DNA of 64,000 bases from contig CBDAOY010000005.1 in the NCBI GenBank assembly GCA_965198225.1, positions 544,001-608,000 on the forward strand. The letters are read 5' to 3'. Below the pieces are notes generated by a model that was not told the DNA's origin, made no database searches, and was given only the letters and a program-made list of their open reading frames with translations. Made by a program: the position numbers and the translations under genes. Below are positions 25,679 to 64,000 of this stretch, one piece after another (within the stretch, counting starts at the first letter, position 1; every line of letters begins with the position of its first letter). This DNA comes from Terriglobia bacterium. Its GTDB lineage: Bacteria; Acidobacteriota; Terriglobia; 20CM-2-55-15.

Positions 25679-26483
25679 ATCGCGGTAGGACGGCCAGTTG
25701 CCCGAACCGCCCCCGCGCAGATCCCGGCGTGCCGTTTTCCGGCACCGGGCTCCTCAGAAGTACTCGCTTCCGCGTCCAGCATCAAGAAAGGGATGTTTCC
25801 TTTCCTCAGCCTTCTTTGCTATCGCCAGCAGTGAGGTTGGCATTGTTTGTTCCGGCCCTTCGTCGCCGGACAATGTTTCCTGTACCAGCTACGTACTTCT
25901 GTCCGCCCCTTCCCCATGTGATCGGCGCTACCGTCTCCGAGTAGTATGAGCGGATCTGACTCCCTGCGAATCATCGATGGCTCTTTGTTTGGTCGAGCCT
26001 GTCTACCCGTGGCTGTCGTCGATCAGGCGTCCAGTTCGTTTAGGCTCCGGCCTACCTGGGTCTGGGTTTCCCCGTGTGTGGGCTCACTACCCGTATGCCC
26101 TGCGATCTGTCGTCTCCGATCGCGTCTCAGCTCGGGAAACCGCAGGGTCTCCCAAGTTCCTGACGCTTCTCTGCATACATGCCACGCTCTAAGGTGGACC
26201 CCGGCAGACCCTCGCGAACCTCACCACAACGGTTCGTCTATGTTGGCTTCCGGTACCGTTAACACCGTCGCCGTCTGCATCAAACGCCATGACGGGGCTG
26301 TATCAAGCCTTGGAGGTCGCGGTCCCTCCTGCGGCCTGCATGCTTCCCTGTGTACGCTTCAACTGACTTGTTCGGCTTTCACCTCCGCAGTCGCAGTTGC
26401 AACACTCGGTAGGAGTGGGTAGTTAACCCTTTCTCCGCAGGGACTCGCACCCTGCAAGAAGCGCCAAGCTTCGCTTGGCGCAC
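25679..26483 (-). ncRNA. ORF-less group II intron
   Basis: 5' GTGCGCC; domain V GAGCCCGGTGCCGGAAAACGGCACGCCGGGATC; DVI and CCTACCGCGAT end; RT reduced to MPTSLLAIAKKA..*. Confidence 0.88.
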
Positions 26484-57616: not shown

Positions 57617-60600
57617 CTAGAACTCGTAGCGCAAGCCAAACTGTATGACGCGCGGCGGGATCAGCACCTGGGAGTAGTTGCCAAAGCTGCCGGGGAAGAC
57701 GAACGAGAGCGTTTCCCAAGCGTCGGGGTTGAACCGAACGCTGTTCGTCACATTGAAGGCCTCGGCCCGAAACTGAAGGTTGTGTCCCTCGAACGGCATC
57801 GGGAAGCGCTTTCCGATGGCCATGTCAATCGAGAATATCCCGTCGCCGCGCAGATTGTTCCGTTGCCCGATTTCGCCGGGCAAGACTTGCCGGAACGAGG
57901 CCAATGCCGCTGCGGGATCGCTGAAGACGTTCGGTCCCGTGCCCCCTCCGATCAACCGGGCGTTCTTCGTGTTCGTCTGTTCCGGGACCGGTCCCACCGG
58001 TTCGGCAAAATGCTGATAGCAATAGCATGTCGGCCAAGCCAGACCGTTCAACACACTGAGGGGAAGGCCTGACGTCAAGCGCAACAATCCGCTGACCTGC
58101 CAATCGCCAAGCACGGCTTGGCCCGCCGGCCCCAGGCTGGGCAGCAGAGGCTTCCCTTGGCCGACCGGCAACTCGACGACCCAGTTGGCGTTCCATTGGT
58201 GGCGCATGTCGAAATCGGAGACGGCCCGCTGCGCCTCCCGGTCCCAGGAATTGATGACGCTGAACGTCGACCAATAGGTGTCTCCCGGAATCTGGCCGAA
58301 CCTTTCACCCTGGCTGCGGCGGGCGCCAACCGACACCAAGTCCGTGGACTTGGACAAGGTGTAGTTCAGGTGGAACTGGTACCCTTGCGAGAAGGCCTTG
58401 CGCAGCGATACCTGCATCGAGTGATAGGTGGAGGTTCCGAAGGACCGGAGCGCATCGAAGGCCCAGAACTGGGGGTTCATGAACGTCCCTTGCCCCAGAT
58501 CGCTGCAGAACGGGGCGCAGGCGTAATCGAGATAGTAGAGCGCCGTGCCGGTATCGGGACTGCTGGACCGGATGACGTCGTAGACGCGCTGAGTCGCCGT
58601 GGCCTCCGGTTTGGCGGCTCCGGAATAGACGTTCTCCCAGAACCCGATGGGCGACACGTCTCCGGTCGGCACCCCGCGGCGCACCATGCCTTCGAGTTCC
58701 TGGAGCGAATCCATCAAATATTCGCCGGACGCGGGATCCCTGAAGTTGGTGTACTGAGCCGCGGCCGTGTCGTTGACGAGCAGTCTGCGACCGAGTCTGC
58801 CAACATAGCCGACCTCCACGAGGAACCCGCCGTCCAACTCACGGGCGATAGAGAAGGTGGGGTTGATGCTATAGGGCGGCCGCACGCTGGAGTCGACTCC
58901 CTGGCTCCATCCCAGTCCGGTTGGGTTTGGCGTGCCCGGCCCTCCTGGCGGTGGCGGCAAGATCCCTCCAGCGGGGGGGTCTGAAATCCCGGCGAAGCGA
59001 GGCGCCGTCGCCACAGTGAAGTCCTGCTTGGTCACCTTGCTGGTGAGGCCGAACGCGTTCCGGTCCAGCATCTGCATCATGCCCATCCCGAAGCTGCTGT
59101 AGAAGATGCCCACCCCGGCCCGGATCGATGTCTGGCCCGGGCTGCCGAACAGCTTGCCCAGAAAACCATCGGAGACATCCGGCGAGAAGGCCACGGAAAG
59201 TCGGGGCGAGAAATTCTTGTAATGGGTGGCCCACAGCGGGCCCCCTTGCGCATCGTCGGCCGGCACGAAGCCGATGGGTCCTGCTTCGCGGGAGGGACGG
59301 CCGTTCGCCGCCAAGTCCAGGCGCTGAGCGATGTAGGAGTCGAGATCCGGCGTGATGCTGACCTGGAGTCCATTCACCTCCCGAACCGGTGGCATGATGG
59401 ACCAACGCAGGCCGGCCGTGATTGTCAAGCCGGGCCTGACGCGCCAGATGTCCTGGAAGTAGAGCTCCAATTGTTCCGCACCGAAAGTTCGGCTCGTGGG
59501 GTCTCCCAGGGGCAACGGATTGCCCTCCAGGTCGTAGTTGTAATTGGCATCGTAGAAGTTGAGGACCCCCAGGGCGGTCGCCATGGTCTCCCGGTAGACT
59601 CCGGGGTTGGCGGGCGGGACGGGGAGCGGCCCGTCGAAGATCGTGGAGGCGTCGGGAAATGCCCAGGCGGCCTGTTTCGCGAAGTGATAGCTGCTGTCGT
59701 AACTCAAGCTGCGATTCCGAGTCGAAAAGAATGCCCCGCCGAACTGCAGGAAGTGCAGGCCACGTGTGACGGAGAAGTTTGCCGTCGCTGTCTGCGTCGG
59801 CACGTAGGTGTCCCGGGGAGTCGTCGCGCCCAGGATATCGTCAATGATGCTGTCTCCGAGACTGGCCCGGGATGCTGTCTGGACACCCGAAACATTCAGC
59901 TTCTGGGCACTGAATCCGTAGCGGAAGGCGCCGATGACGTTGCCGCCGAACGTGCCGTCGTATCCGAATGCCAACCCGCGGCTGGTGTCGGCCGTCTCGC
60001 TGTTAGAGGGCTGGCCGGGAAACTGGGGCACGCTCGAGATGCGGTCGTTCTGGTAGTTGGCACGCAGGAACATGCGGTGCAGACCGGTGCTATCGGCCGC
60101 CCAGTCGATCTTGGAAACGAATGTGTTCCAGGCCAGGGGCGTCGAGGCCGTGAACCGGTATCCCGCCGTGTTCAAGCCATCTCCGACGGTGGAGTCGTTC
60201 GGTTCCGGAAAGGACCCGAAGTATTCGAGAGTGGCGGGATTGGGACCCGCCTGCAGAGGATCGATCCGGGTGCGGATGAATTCCGGATCGAGCGTCTCGA
60301 CATCCCCGCTGGCGCTCCTGTACCGGACGAATCCATCGCGCATCGAAGCCGTCGGAACCCGGCGCACTGCACTGCCGTCGCTGGCGTCCCGGCGGCCTTC
60401 GTAGTTCACGAAGTAGAAGAGACGATCCCTCTTGACGGGGCCGCCGATGGAGCCGCCGAAGACATTGCGGATCAGCTTGGGACGATCGACACCGGCCCTG
60501 TTGTTGAAGAAATCATTCGCCGCCGTAATCGTGTTCCGGTGAAATTCGTAGAGCGATCCGTGGACCTCGTTGGTCCCGCTTTTCGTCACCAGCGACACCT

Positions 60601-61327
60601 GCGCACCCGACGAACGGCCCTGGTCGGCATTGGCCGTGGTCGTCACCACACGGAATTCCTGAATCGAATCCAGCGTGTTGCGCAGCACGCTGGTGAACGG
60701 CGTGCGTCCGTTCTGATCGTTCACATCGACCCCGTCCAGCGTCACGTTCGACTGGTCGCTCTGGGCTCCGTTCACCGAACCATTCCGGATATCCGCCGAT
60801 CGCTGGGTGTCCAGCGGGTCCGCGCTGATGAAGGTGACACCCGCCTGCAGCGAGAGCAGCCCGGCCGGATTTCTTGCATTCAGCGGCAATTGGCTGATCG
60901 GCCTGATTCCAAACGCGTTCCCAACTGACGCATCAGTGGTATTCAGCTGTTCGGCCACGGCGGACACCGTGACGGATTCGGTGAGCGCCGCGACTTCGAA
61001 TGTCACGGGAAGCTCGACGTTCGTGTTGACGAGCAACGTGACGCCTTCAATAGTCACCGATTGGAAACCCGTCTGGGTCGCCGACAGCGTGTAGGAGCCG
61101 GGTGGGAGCTGGGCAAAGATATACAGCCCCTCATTGTTGGACAGTATGGTTCGCTGGAGGCCGTTGGCGGCGTTGGTAACGGTGATCTCGGCGCCGGGGA
61201 ACACGGCGCCGCTCTCGTCGGTGACCCGTCCGCTCAAACTGCTGGATTGAGCGTGAGAATCTGGAGCGGCGAGGGTGATTGCCATCAGAAAGATCAAGAA
61301 CAGAGAGTAGAATCGAATTGGTTCCAT
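57617..61327 (-). CDS. TonB-dependent receptor (Oar-like)
   Basis: Signal peptide, LSGRVTDESGA, DSIQEFRV, TKSGTN, FRAEAFNVTN, PRVIQFGLRYEF. Confidence 0.93.
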   Translation of the reverse strand: MEPIRFYSLFLIFLMAITLAAPDSHAQSSSLSGRVTDESGAVFPGAEITVTNAANGLQRTILSNNEGLYIFAQLPPGSYTLSATQTGFQSVTIEGVTLLVNTNVELPVTFEVAALTESVTVSAVAEQLNTTDASVGNAFGIRPISQLPLNARNPAGLLSLQAGVTFISADPLDTQRSADIRNGSVNGAQSDQSNVTLDGVDVNDQNGRTPFTSVLRNTLDSIQEFRVVTTTANADQGRSSGAQVSLVTKSGTNEVHGSLYEFHRNTITAANDFFNNRAGVDRPKLIRNVFGGSIGGPVKRDRLFYFVNYEGRRDASDGSAVRRVPTASMRDGFVRYRSASGDVETLDPEFIRTRIDPLQAGPNPATLEYFGSFPEPNDSTVGDGLNTAGYRFTASTPLAWNTFVSKIDWAADSTGLHRMFLRANYQNDRISSVPQFPGQPSNSETADTSRGLAFGYDGTFGGNVIGAFRYGFSAQKLNVSGVQTASRASLGDSIIDDILGATTPRDTYVPTQTATANFSVTRGLHFLQFGGAFFSTRNRSLSYDSSYHFAKQAAWAFPDASTIFDGPLPVPPANPGVYRETMATALGVLNFYDANYNYDLEGNPLPLGDPTSRTFGAEQLELYFQDIWRVRPGLTITAGLRWSIMPPVREVNGLQVSITPDLDSYIAQRLDLAANGRPSREAGPIGFVPADDAQGGPLWATHYKNFSPRLSVAFSPDVSDGFLGKLFGSPGQTSIRAGVGIFYSSFGMGMMQMLDRNAFGLTSKVTKQDFTVATAPRFAGISDPPAGGILPPPPGGPGTPNPTGLGWSQGVDSSVRPPYSINPTFSIARELDGGFLVEVGYVGRLGRRLLVNDTAAAQYTNFRDPASGEYLMDSLQELEGMVRRGVPTGDVSPIGFWENVYSGAAKPEATATQRVYDVIRSSSPDTGTALYYLDYACAPFCSDLGQGTFMNPQFWAFDALRSFGTSTYHSMQVSLRKAFSQGYQFHLNYTLSKSTDLVSVGARRSQGERFGQIPGDTYWSTFSVINSWDREAQRAVSDFDMRHQWNANWVVELPVGQGKPLLPSLGPAGQAVLGDWQVSGLLRLTSGLPLSVLNGLAWPTCYCYQHFAEPVGPVPEQTNTKNARLIGGGTGPNVFSDPAAALASFRQVLPGEIGQRNNLRGDGIFSIDMAIGKRFPMPFEGHNLQFRAEAFNVTNSVRFNPDAWETLSFVFPGSFGNYSQVLIPPRVIQFGLRYEF

Positions 61328-61593
61328 TTGATTAAATTCTCCTTACCTTTACCCGGACCGCCACAGGCTGAAGCACGTCCGGCGGGGAGAGCAGGATCAC
61401 CTCCGCGCGCGGGGGACTCTTTTCTCTTGCTCGACGTTCCCGGCATCATACTCGAATGAGAATCGTAAGCTACCGTATTACACCGTAGAGTCGACGACTG
61501 GCGCGGTGGCGGTAGGCAAAGGGGGTAGCTGTTGCCGGTGGCTTTCGCCGATTCCGGTGCCTCACTCCTCGCCGTGGCTTCGTTTCCAGTCGC

Positions 61594-62912
61594 ACCGGGT
61601 GGCCGGAGGCAGTTGCCCGCCTCCGGCTCCCACAGAACGCAGCGTGCGGATTTCCCGCACTGCGCTCTTCAGAATTGGATTTACAGCACAGCGAGAGACT
61701 GGAACTCCCGATAGCGGAGAGCCAACTTGGGACGCTGTAACGGAAAGTGCAGCCGAATCCGGTTGAATACTTCCCACCGGACGAAGCCTGCACGACTACG
61801 ACTGCTGAGCATTTGGCGCCAGTAACGTTCCACGGCCCGAGCGACGTGCTGCAGAGCCTCGGTTCAGATTGTGCACTTGCTCCCGGACCGGCAAGTGACG
61901 CATTCGCCTCATCACGCCGCGTAGATGAGCCAGACTGCGTCGAAGTCGAGACTTCTCACCGCGTCGGCCGGAATTTCGCTCTCGCTTATATCCGCACCTA
62001 CCGCGCAGGGCTCTAGGTCGATGTTTGTCTTCTCGGTTGCCCGCCCTTTCGTCTGCGGGTGCCACATCATCTCGACCTTACCTTCCGCTCGGACGATACC
62101 AGGCCTCCCTGGGTCACTCGCGTCTCTTCTCCACCGTGTCGCCCGCACACACCTTGGTGCGATGGGGTGGAACCAATGCGCCTTCGCCCCAATAGTGCGG
62201 GCTCGACCATTCCCCATCTTTGGCCGACCGGTTCATCCTCGGGATGGCTCCCGTCGATTACGACCCGGTGGTTCTCCTCATGCCCTTCAGACCCCACCTC
62301 GCGGTGGGCGCCCTGCCCTCCAAAGTTTCCGTAGCTGGCTCCAGCTTTGCCTTGGCCGTATCCGGCTTTCGCCTTCGTGCCCGTTTAGGCATCTGCACTA
62401 CCTGTCTACACTTCGGCCAGTGAGGCATTACCCCCACTTGTTGGATATCGACCCGTGGCCTCGGGCCGAGCGGGACTTTAACCCGCCGGAAACGCGTGCT
62501 GCCAGGCACGCACTATCAGCCAGTCTGACTTCCGACAGGCCTTCGGGTCTTCCTCGCGTTGTTGGCTTGTCCAACCCTACAAGCTCCGCTTGAACCTGAC
62601 GGATCTCCCTTGTTCCCATGAAATCCTTGGTTGCATGCCGGCGGTACGAACCCCGGAAGCACCCCAGGGCACTTGCCATTGCGTGCCCTGCGATTCCGCC
62701 TTCCCCCTAGAGCGACAGGGTCGGCTACTTCAACCACGTTCGATTTCGGGGCTATCTTTCCGTTCACTGGTGTTCCGGCCTACTCCCTCCCTGTCTACGC
62801 TTCGCAGTGTCCGTCACCGACCACCACGCAAGACTCGGTACGTGGCTGCCGGCTAGGCTCTGCCACGGCCGCCATCTCAGGCGACTGGATCTCATGCGCT
62901 TGCAAGGCGCAA
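61594..62912 (-). mobile_element. Group II intron B inserted between DV and DVI of intron A; RT mostly deleted
   Basis: 5' TTGCGCC; DV GAGCGCAGTGCGGGAAATCCGCACGCTGCGTTC; end CCACCCGGT; maturase C-terminus VERYWRQMLSSRS..LQRPKL..LAVL*. Confidence 0.85.
61960..62513 (-). mobile_element. Group II intron C, 5' portion only, inserted inside intron B
   Basis: 5' GTGCGTGCCTGGCAGCACGCG follows AGTCAGACTGGCTGATA of B; no DV of its own found; lower boundary approximate. Confidence 0.72.
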
Positions 62913-62963
62913 CGCTCATCGAACCGGACATGCGGATTTCCCGCATCCGGCTCTCGGACGAGA

Positions 62964-64000
62964 TCATGCCTTCGCCCACGGAAAGCTCGCCGTACGCGGC
63001 GCAAGATGCGTGAGCCCGTAATCGGACCAGAGCCGCTCGGACGGGAAGCGCACGTGTTTCCCGGTCCGCACCTTGTGCTTACGGCAGAGCCACTGGCGCA
63101 GCCGCCGGGTCGCGTGTTGATCAATCGCCTTGTAGGCCGGGCGGACCTGTCCCAGGATGAAATAGTTCGCCCAACCGATCAGCAACCGGTTGAGGCGTCC
63201 CACTACGACTCCCGACGGCAGGAGCACGTGGCGCGGCGCGGTCAACTCGCTCACACGACGGCAGATGCTCTGGACGCTTTCCCGGCTCGGATGTGTGCCT
63301 ATGTAGGCGGCACCCGTACCCGGCCGGTAGTTGCAACCGATCCGGTAGCCGAGGAACGTCATCGATTCCTCCGGCACCCGGCAGCAGCGGGTCTTCTCAA
63401 CGTTCATCGCCAACTTCAGACGTTTTATCAGGGCTTCGACCGCCGCTAGCATCACCGCTGCCGGCGCGCGACCGAGAACCGCGAAGTCATCCGCGTAGTT
63501 GACGATTTCCGCCTTGAAGTGCCGGGCGTAGCCCAGCACCTTCCAGCCCAGAATGAAGCGCCGCATGTAGATGTTGCTGAACAGCGGCGAGATCGGAGAC
63601 CCTTGCGGGGTCCCCTTCCGCTCGTGACGCGCCCGGTTCGTGCGGCGGCGACCGCCGCGCCCGTCGTCCTCTTCCACCGCCATCTCCAGCCACGCCTTGA
63701 CCCAGCCCAACAGCCGCCCGTCGCTCACACGCCGGGCGATGGACTTCATCAGGTCCGCGTGCGGAATCTGGCCGAAGTAGTCCGACAGGTCGGCGTCCAC
63801 CACCTCCCGGTGGCCCGTCCTCAGCAGCCGATGCACGCGCCTGACTGCGTCATGCGCGTCTCGGCCCGGCCGGTACGCATACTGCTCCGGTTGCAGGTCG
63901 GCTTCGAAGATCGGCGATAACACCAGCATCGCCGCCGTCTGCACCACCCGATCCCGGAGACACGGAATGCCCAACGGCCGGAACTTCCCTCGTTGCTTCT
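62964..64000 (-). CDS. ltrA: Group II intron reverse transcriptase/maturase (partial)
   Basis: RPLGIPCLRDRVVQ, DADLSDYF, GTPQGSPISP, YADD, FLGY, maturase GWANYF; no endonuclease domain. Confidence 0.95.
   Translation of the reverse strand, partial: KQRGKFRPLGIPCLRDRVVQTAAMLVLSPIFEADLQPEQYAYRPGRDAHDAVRRVHRLLRTGHREVVDADLSDYFGQIPHADLMKSIARRVSDGRLLGWVKAWLEMAVEEDDGRGGRRRTNRARHERKGTPQGSPISPLFSNIYMRRFILGWKVLGYARHFKAEIVNYADDFAVLGRAPAAVMLAAVEALIKRLKLAMNVEKTRCCRVPEESMTFLGYRIGCNYRPGTGAAYIGTHPSRESVQSICRRVSELTAPRHVLLPSGVVVGRLNRLLIGWANYFILGQVRPAYKAIDQHATRRLRQWLCRKHKVRTGKHVRFPSERLWSDYGLTHLAPRTASFPWAKA

Follow-up and report, generated by a model that had tools for sequence, protein, structure and literature searches.

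The commonest neighbours of group II introns are other group II introns (PMC7306698), and twintrons and nests of introns inserted in introns do occur, as the initial annotation of the present locus stated, and have been described for Methanosarcina (PMC4424553) and for Thermosynechococcus (PMC2882425). Twintrons are presented as extremely rare in bacteria, in which a single one was known within a protein-coding gene in 2015 (PMC4649490), and nests of several levels have been described mainly from one archaeon (PMC4424553). We will examine here a locus at the end of a 64,000-nucleotide (nt) stretch from a Terriglobia bacterium (hereafter the window, C5:544001-608000 of a 6.4-Mb genome in nine contigs), which is very probably a nest of mobile group II introns, three levels deep and in a state of decay. 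This nest lies entirely on the minus strand and the window holds its 3' half, the reading past base 64000 being drawn from the contig. We will call A the outer intron, Q the middle one and E the innermost one (Q and E being the B and C of the initial annotation), so that the arrangement can be written A{Q{E}}. A nest formed by homing into introns and then eroded by recombination is of an already described kind.

In Methanosarcina acetivorans, according to the review PMC4424553, several introns are likewise nested with no coding exon, homing into other group II introns is repeated and site-specific, copies are removed or reshuffled by recombination (as in the chimera C5:889953-892508 here), and members with and without an open reading frame (ORF) coexist in one family. 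The targets differ, however: in Methanosarcina they are the reading frames of related introns, to judge from the title of Dai and Zimmerly (2003), whereas Q inserts in the ribozyme itself, 5 nt from the start of domain VI, and has hosts of several domain V sequence types. In Thermosynechococcus elongatus (PMC2882425), the ORF-less intron TeI3 occupies a conserved domain IV position in TeI4, close to where the host frame begins, which is comparable to E in Q; identical inner introns likewise reside in diverged outer ones, insertion sequences are also targeted, and TeI4h has a 5' T, like Q. The differences are that there are only two levels there and no domain VI target, and that mobility was shown there experimentally, whereas it is read from sequence here. 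The zombie twintrons of plant mitochondria (PMC7049729) likewise carry a degenerate inner intron as a dead insert, and they include an intron that invaded its own kind, as E did in E in our genome, but their outer introns lie in genes and their splicing was shown, whereas the exons of our locus are non-coding. Finally, the twintron of Trichodesmium (PMC4649490) is likewise bacterial, and since its inner intron interrupts one of the ribozyme domains of its host, splicing has to proceed in sequence; it differs by the position of the inner intron, in domain I, by its location in a protein-coding gene and by the demonstration of this sequential splicing.

The whole window was scanned with Rfam at the gathering threshold, which gave four matches, three of them within the nest. 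Two are matches to the domain V/VI model RF00029 (gathering score 40), at 62955-62894 (40.3 bits, E 1.8e-4) and 61669-61594 (47.1 bits, E 3.9e-6), and the third is a full-length match to a 5'-domain model (RF02005, group-II-D1D4-6) at 62643-62877; a laxer scan of 61000-64000 added a weak RF02001 match at 62308-62201 (24.5 bits for a cut-off of 32). The genome as a whole has 32 domain V matches and, above the Rfam cut-offs, no fewer than 41 matches to 5' domains, and the comparison of the extended region with the genome by BLAST indicates that the region is assembled from repeated units. These repeats make it possible to delimit each level, since copies of A devoid of insert and relatives of Q devoid of E establish the three-level nest that the initial annotation had proposed, and the strings it cited are all found on the minus strand where it had placed them.

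The outer intron A begins beyond the window with a canonical GUGYG end (GTGCGCC, window-equivalent 66251), and its domain I is matched by RF02003 (82.8 bits, L001:5583-5726). Its whole frame of 479 amino acids starts at window-equivalent 64403, outside the window, which holds the 3' part (62964-64000, minus strand), and the protein has complete Pfam matches to RVT_1 (113 bits) and GIIM (53 bits), obtained on L001:2464-3903. Domain V of A (GAGCCGGAUGCGGGAAAUCCGCAUGUCCGGUUC, 62921-62953) corresponds to the first of the RF00029 matches and to plastid domain V models at sub-threshold scores; it displays the AGC triad and a 2-nt bulge, and it forms a hairpin in the fold of an uninterrupted copy, in which it is followed by a long domain VI with a bulged adenosine. 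In the window, it is followed by the GAT linker and by the first five bases of domain VI, GAGCG (62913-62920), after which the insert begins. The 3' part of domain VI (GCGACUGG...CCAGUCGUCG-A-CUC-UAC, 61485-61593) was delimited by the BLAST copies, the divergence of the flanks and the same fold; these 109 nt are 100% identical at 10 places of the genome and lead to the 3' end of A, ...CGACTCTAC, at 61485, the flanks diverging past ...CTCTAC. Read from the sequence, domain VI is thus 5'-GAG-CGGCGACUGG...CCAGUCGUCG-A-CUC-UAC-3', with the bulged adenosine 7 nt from the 3' end in both sequence and fold. The 1319-bp insert (62912-61594) splits this domain and breaks its helix two base pairs above the bulged adenosine. 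The initial annotation had placed the end of domain V at 62913, where GATGAGCG does end, but domain V proper stops at 62921, the last eight bases being those of the linker and of the start of domain VI; the resumption of domain VI at 61593, where GCGACTGGAAACG starts, was correctly placed.

The ends of the insertion of Q in A are precise, as they are set by uninterrupted copies of A. The 20-nt domain V/VI joint of A has six matches in the genome when two mismatches are allowed, of which four continue into TTGCG, the start of Q, and two into GCGACTGG. Indeed, the empty sites C5:743404 and C6:6068 run directly into GCGACTGGAAACG, so that the corresponding copies (C5:743295-748253 and C6:5959-7960) read ...GGTTCGATGAGCG and then GCGACTGGAAACG without insert, and the proposal that cutting out 61594-62912 restores a contiguous A is borne out by these two copies, which read GATGAGCG|GCGACTGG. 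In an uninterrupted copy, RF00029 crosses the joint with 45.2 bits over 152 nt (L002:795-946). The 3' end of A is matched at 11 places of the genome, with at least seven different flanks: eight of them have the 3' end of Q immediately upstream, two are empty and have one flank in common, and one is a diverged variant (C4:108677). A also contains an element that was absent from the initial annotation, a 1456-bp insertion sequence of the IS110 family lying upstream of its frame (window-equivalent 65821-64366, L001:3866-5321), which encodes a 344-amino-acid DEDD transposase on the opposite strand and is identical at three other places of the genome. A different IS110-family element (1512 bp, with a product of 348 amino acids) occupies another fixed position in other copies of A, which suggests that this intron is a target of insertion sequences as well.

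The middle intron Q had been credited with atypical termini and a domain V of its own, and both descriptions hold. Its 5' part of 401 nt (TTGCG...CTGGCTGATAGT, 62512-62912) is identical at the three other genome loci compared and 88.7-92% identical in four related genomes, where it is continuous with the rest of Q. It contains the domain I core (62643-62877; RF02005, 137.2 bits, model 1-225/225, E 6.3e-39) and, in a 9-nt loop of a hairpin predicted by Rfam, the exon-binding site 1 (EBS1) CGCUC (62710-62714). At its other end, domains V and VI (61594-61669; RF00029, 47.1 bits, model 1-77/77) lead to the 3' end ...CCACCCGGT at 61594 (where the CCCGGT terminus noted initially also ends), which adjoins the tail of A at eight places of the genome. 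The 5' end is UUGCG in six of the six genome copies, which departs from GUGYG at one position (in the 58 loci from other genomes discussed below, UUGCG is built into the search pattern), and the 5' boundary is fixed by the empty sites of A; such a one-position departure is no ground for excluding Q from the group II introns. An intact Q consists of the 401-nt 5' part and of a second piece, Z, made of a leader of about 100 nt, a 448-amino-acid protein with RVT_1 and GIIM, and domains V/VI. Its maturase gene is intact and identical at six other loci, while in the window there remain only residues 341-374, then 391-448 and the stop in another frame (61681-61957, by tblastn of the intact protein against the insert and sequence comparison). 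The pieces named here come from a full-length comparison with C5:889953-892399, which gave X, Y and Z (E being X+Y), as the units delimited by BLAST borders were misleading.

The innermost intron E interrupts Q, and its precise ends are again given by uninterrupted relatives. In the related genomes G005, G012 and G021, these are 1938 nt long, and together with a 5'-truncated one in G003, they run from ...CAGACTGGCTGATAGT straight into ACTC(C/T)GAGGTCGGG, without E; this places the Q/E joint of the window at 62512|62511 (...GATAGT|ACTCC in the relatives). The third intron had initially been made to start with GTGCG at 62513, and this motif does lie at 62513-62509, but its GT belongs to the host Q, as the uninterrupted relatives read ...GATAGT|ACTCC, and the inserted DNA starts at 62511 with GCGTG. 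The window keeps the first 554 of the approximately 906 nt of E (61958-62511, start GCGTGCC), which are found in 100% identical copies, its domains V/VI being deleted. Its 5' end is GCGUG in all copies, which agrees with GUGYG at four of the five positions, and the GU ahead of it, which gives a canonical look, is in every case part of the target (RAUAGU|). When uninterrupted sites are set against occupied ones, exactly GCGTG...CTCTAC is missing from three groups of them: the site internal to E itself, which is uninterrupted in 15 copies (GGGGAATAGT|ACTCAGG), the Q relatives of the four genomes, and a related ORF-less family. The complete E is ORF-less and ends with ...CGACTCTAC; its complete copies score 36.9-37 bits with RF00029, below the gathering score, and their sequence shows a hairpin of domain V as well as the ...CGACUCUAC end. 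In addition, two copies of E have a 1251-nt insert encoding a protein with RVT_1 and GIIM.

Two deletions have then affected this copy of the nest. By comparison with the full-length C5:889953-892399, 1477 bp are missing at 61958|61957, where position 554 of E is fused to codon ~341 of the Q maturase with a one-base microhomology (...CCGACGCGGT|GAGAAGTCTCG); E has thereby lost its 3' 352 nt, with domains V/VI, and Q has lost 1125 nt, namely the leader and codons 1-340. A second deletion, of 47 bp, lies at 61859|61858 between CCGAG and CCGGG, and the two together remove 353 of the 448 codons of the maturase. Neither was found in any other copy in the genome by BLAST. In the full-length nests, the 5' part of E and the 3' part of Q are 1475-1805 bp apart, whereas they touch each other in the window, which agrees with the initial idea that a deletion joined the third intron to the maturase tail of the second.

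These losses bear on what the locus can still do. E has no domains V/VI and thus cannot excise here; Q has lost the 3' side of the stem around the E site and its reading frame, of which the 47-bp deletion leaves the remainder frameshifted, so that Q encodes no protein here; and as long as Q is not removed, the domain VI helix of A stays split above the branch adenosine. We therefore consider it likely that neither Q nor A splices at this locus any longer, and this copy is most likely a dead and inert relic. The reason initially given, namely that A cannot splice because the second intron has lost its core, is not supported as worded, since Q is still matched by RF02005 over its full length and retains its EBS1 loop together with domains V and VI. 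This same retention of the complete domain I and of domains V/VI counts against a dead Q, as does the presence elsewhere of the six identical intact maturase genes, whose product could act in trans. A different outcome can be built on these two points, in which the fragment of E would be inert in domain IV of Q, Q would be spliced by the 448-amino-acid maturase of the other copies, and A would splice afterwards, as in a zombie twintron. The E site is suitably placed for this, in the region expected of domain IV, since it adjoins a stem with a compensatory change and precedes the maturase start by about 100 nt; A has its frame of 479 amino acids with complete RVT_1 and GIIM matches, and plant mitochondrial introns do splice despite dead inner introns in their domain IV (PMC7049729). 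However, the 1477-bp deletion took away the 3' strand of this stem and the leader adjoining the start codon of Q, and the region by the maturase start codon is the main high-affinity binding site of the maturase in other introns (PMC12584367); A, for its part, also holds the 1456-bp IS110-family element upstream of its frame. We thus regard this outcome as unlikely, and loss of splicing in both Q and A as the better account of the locus.

Since the elements exist in many near-identical copies, the arrangement, or at least its internal deletion, could also be an artefact of the assembly of a repeat-rich genome. The stretch is present in public runs labelled, among others, sponge metagenome or metatranscriptome, and the short-read contigs of these runs, which are interrupted at each repeat border, stop at 61593, 61858, 61957, 62487 and 62913. 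The joints of the nest are nevertheless repeated, the A/Q joint being found at four loci and the Q/E joint at six in the nine-contig assembly, as well as in another genome (G020), and both are covered by a contig of an independent run, from an RNA library, which spans 62487-62942 with less than 31 nt on the outer sides. The contig ends at 61593 fit the empty-site form, which exists as DNA in the genome too. As for the deletion, it joins sequences with one base in common, which a repeat collapse would not yield. Two points remain on the debit side of the nest as we read it: no listed contig bridges 61958|61957, so that the deletion joint is given by the assembly, and all four public runs consist of assembled short-read contigs, a kind of data unable to show splicing. 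On balance, an artefact appears very improbable. The notion that two elements merely stand side by side, A ending at 62894 with a domain VI formed by the hairpin GCGUUGC..GCAAGCGC, and a separate intron following downstream, has in its favour the alignment of RF00029 to 62955-62894 just above the gathering score, but it is refuted by the empty-site copies of A, which go from GATGAGCG to GCGACTGG, end with ...CGACTCTAC and score higher (45.2 bits), while this hairpin is made of the first 19 nt of Q, moves with Q to sites outside A and to other genomes, and has a bulged G instead of an A. One contig from an RNA library (run X13) joins 61549 to 62913 and skips 1363 nt, which fits neither the ends of Q nor any mapped copy.

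The nest A{Q{E}} being delimited, we can turn to the way its inner introns choose their targets. The initial annotation held that the second and third introns target conserved segments of other introns, and both indeed home into introns. Of the six 5' joints of Q in the genome, four lie in domain VI of A, five bases after its start, one follows ...GGGTTCCGGGAGCG, and one lies in a cysteine-synthase-like gene, after ...GAGTTTCATGAGCG, where the junction reads ...CATGAGCG|G and taking out the insert leaves a continuous frame (323 amino acids). The sequence just ahead of Q in three related genomes consists of a domain V, a linker of two or three bases and GAGGG, and in one of these genomes joining the flanks of Q yields a domain VI that is short but canonical, bulged adenosine included. 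The loop CGCUC of Q is complementary to GAGCG, the first five bases of domain VI of A, which are therefore its intron-binding site 1 (IBS1), and in the relatives with a GAGGG exon, the loop is CUCUC; position -6 covaries too (U with A, A with U).

To extend this picture, public genomes (one per species) were scanned for exact matches to the first 21 nt of Q, a search that samples close relatives of Q only and that gave 58 loci, distributed among many phyla (Acidobacteriota, several classes of Proteobacteria, Chlorobi and others). A covariance model of domain V, built from 13 introns of our genome, found, for 38 of the 58 loci, a domain V on the same strand that stops 5-7 nt ahead of Q, the distance being exactly 5 nt in 33 of them, and it gave 89 matches in total across 334 kb; three of the 20 loci devoid of such a match have no upstream sequence. 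The hosts of these Q-type introns belong to several different domain V sequence types. A simpler hairpin criterion for domain V-like flanks was dropped, as it was satisfied by 39 of 55 flanks and, among the control 48-mers, by 70 of 247. In the 44 loci from which both flank and loop could be extracted, EBS1 and IBS1 are paired at 207 of 220 positions, and at all five positions in 36 loci, whereas shuffling the partners gave means of 173 positions and 12.9 loci and never reached the observed pairing in 5000 trials, a test that overstates the significance since loci with a common ancestry are not independent. Six distinct compensating pairs are found: GAGAG/CUCUC, GCGGG/CCCGC, GAGCG/CGCUC, GGGAG/CUCCC, GAGGA/UCCUC and GAGGG/CCCUC. 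The EBS2 of Q is tentatively CGAAC, which would pair with the 3' strand of the host domain V; compared by eye with GUUCG, it pairs at five of five positions in the window and at three or four of five in three relatives. In another genome, one Q-type intron (L037) follows GGTTCAAATCCGGTCCGGGCTGGG, which has the look of the T-arm and acceptor end of a tRNA gene, not of a domain V, and could be an ectopic target with a likeness to ...GGTTC, the linker and GNGGG.

For E, 18 of the 20 5' joints found in the genome lie in introns: six in Q, four in E itself and eight in other introns, which have an Rfam 5'-domain match 140-410 nt upstream, the remaining two being in unidentified sequence. The flanks of the insertions have RAUAGU in common, and the loop of the host that E enters precedes the start of the host maturase by about 100 nt. 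In Q, the site adjoins a 7-bp stem, CUGGCUG/CGGCCAG, in which one compensatory change from G:C to A:U is found in a relative; minimum-energy folds suggest that the site is in a loop beside this stem. Lying by this stem and about 100 nt before the maturase start, the site is probably at the base of domain IV. The EBS1 of E is probably ACUAUU (62196-62191), a candidate read from the sequence by its complementarity to RAUAGU.

Taken further, these observations could mean that Q represents a widespread and undescribed lineage that homes between the fifth and sixth bases of domain VI of other introns, and that Q and E are hyperparasites, E having an unusual GCGUG 5' end. We put this forward as a tentative reading, slightly less likely than not. 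An equally guarded part of it is that the EBS1 of Q would track the domain VI of the host, with the invariant 3' strand of domain V standing where IBS2 is expected. Beside the narrow sampling and the shared ancestry of the loci mentioned above, the imperfect pairing of EBS2 in the three relatives and the candidate status of the E EBS1 weigh against our main account of the locus, with Q and E as site-specific parasites of other introns. No description of a domain VI homing site was found in the literature searched, a search that left subscription papers outside, so that this fixed site may be new to the literature. If the reading is true, the domain V/VI joint of the hosts is the homing site of Q, the most conserved part of the host serves as a permanent landing pad, and the branch-site helix of the host depends on the excision of Q, which would plainly illustrate how selfish elements can live on others of their sort. 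The EBS1 of Q and the domain VI of its hosts would then constitute a testable pair for the evolution of target choice.

A probable history of the locus can be drawn from the nest. E would have settled about 100 nt upstream of the Q maturase gene, probably by pairing ACUAUU with RAUAGU in a loop of its host, before a Q already carrying E inserted itself into A, the intron with the 479-amino-acid maturase, after the fifth base of domain VI. For this step, Q would have paired its EBS1 CGCUC with GAGCG, and probably its EBS2 CGAAC with the 3' strand of the host domain V. No endonuclease domain was seen by Pfam in either maturase, which points to integration through reverse splicing primed at replication forks, a known route for introns devoid of this domain. 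The insertion would have been followed by the illegitimate 1477-bp deletion and by the 47-bp deletion with its frameshift. When this locus is compared with C5:810698-813421, identity is 100% over the 401 nt of Q and the 554 nt of E, against 93-96% over the outer A. Identical inner introns in diverged hosts have been taken as the sign of a recent invasion of older, dispersed hosts (Mohr et al., PMC2882425), so the pattern suggests a recent spread of the inner Q/E pair, gene conversion being the alternative; as the pair is identical at sites with different flanks, it has probably moved as a composite. A contig of a genome placed in another genus of the same family (L014, G020:C24:327-4085) carries the 5' part of Q and two 5' parts of E that are 100% identical to the window, which suggests either a recent transfer between members of the community or cross-binning.

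The genome can thus be seen as a natural collection of nests at various stages, intact, duplicated, recombined and deleted. Rearranged forms include E in E, duplicated halves of E, and a foreign 5' intron part connected through E to the 3' part of Q and the tail of A (C5:889953-892508); they suggest that the copies have recombined with one another, which has also been described in Methanosarcina (PMC4424553). The Q copy in the cysteine-synthase-like gene (L004, G000:C5:60624-64413, minus strand) is a Q{E{E}} nest with an intact 448-amino-acid maturase, inserted in the sense orientation near the 5' end of the gene. At another locus (L008, G000:C5:815632-817038), a 1407-bp segment lies between two copies of Q within one A; it encodes a 476-amino-acid transposase-like protein on the opposite strand, and the adjoining Q copy has a frame of 484 amino acids, degenerate over its first third and, over the rest, identical to the intact maturase.

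Apart from the nest, the window contains another ORF-less group II intron, about 805 nt long (25679-26483, minus strand), which starts with GTGCGCC, exists in three copies in the genome and retains about 20 codons of a lost maturase. It is matched by RF02005 (116 bits) and RF00029 (43 bits), and the BLAST comparison of Q with it, made for domain mapping, gave short matches only. This intron holds an uninterrupted and slightly mismatched E target, CATACT|ACTCGG. Finally, 157 nt downstream of the 3' end of the nest and on the same strand, there is a reading frame of 1236 amino acids (57617-61327, minus strand), whose N-terminus resembles, by eye, the carboxypeptidase-regulatory/TonB-dependent receptor type.

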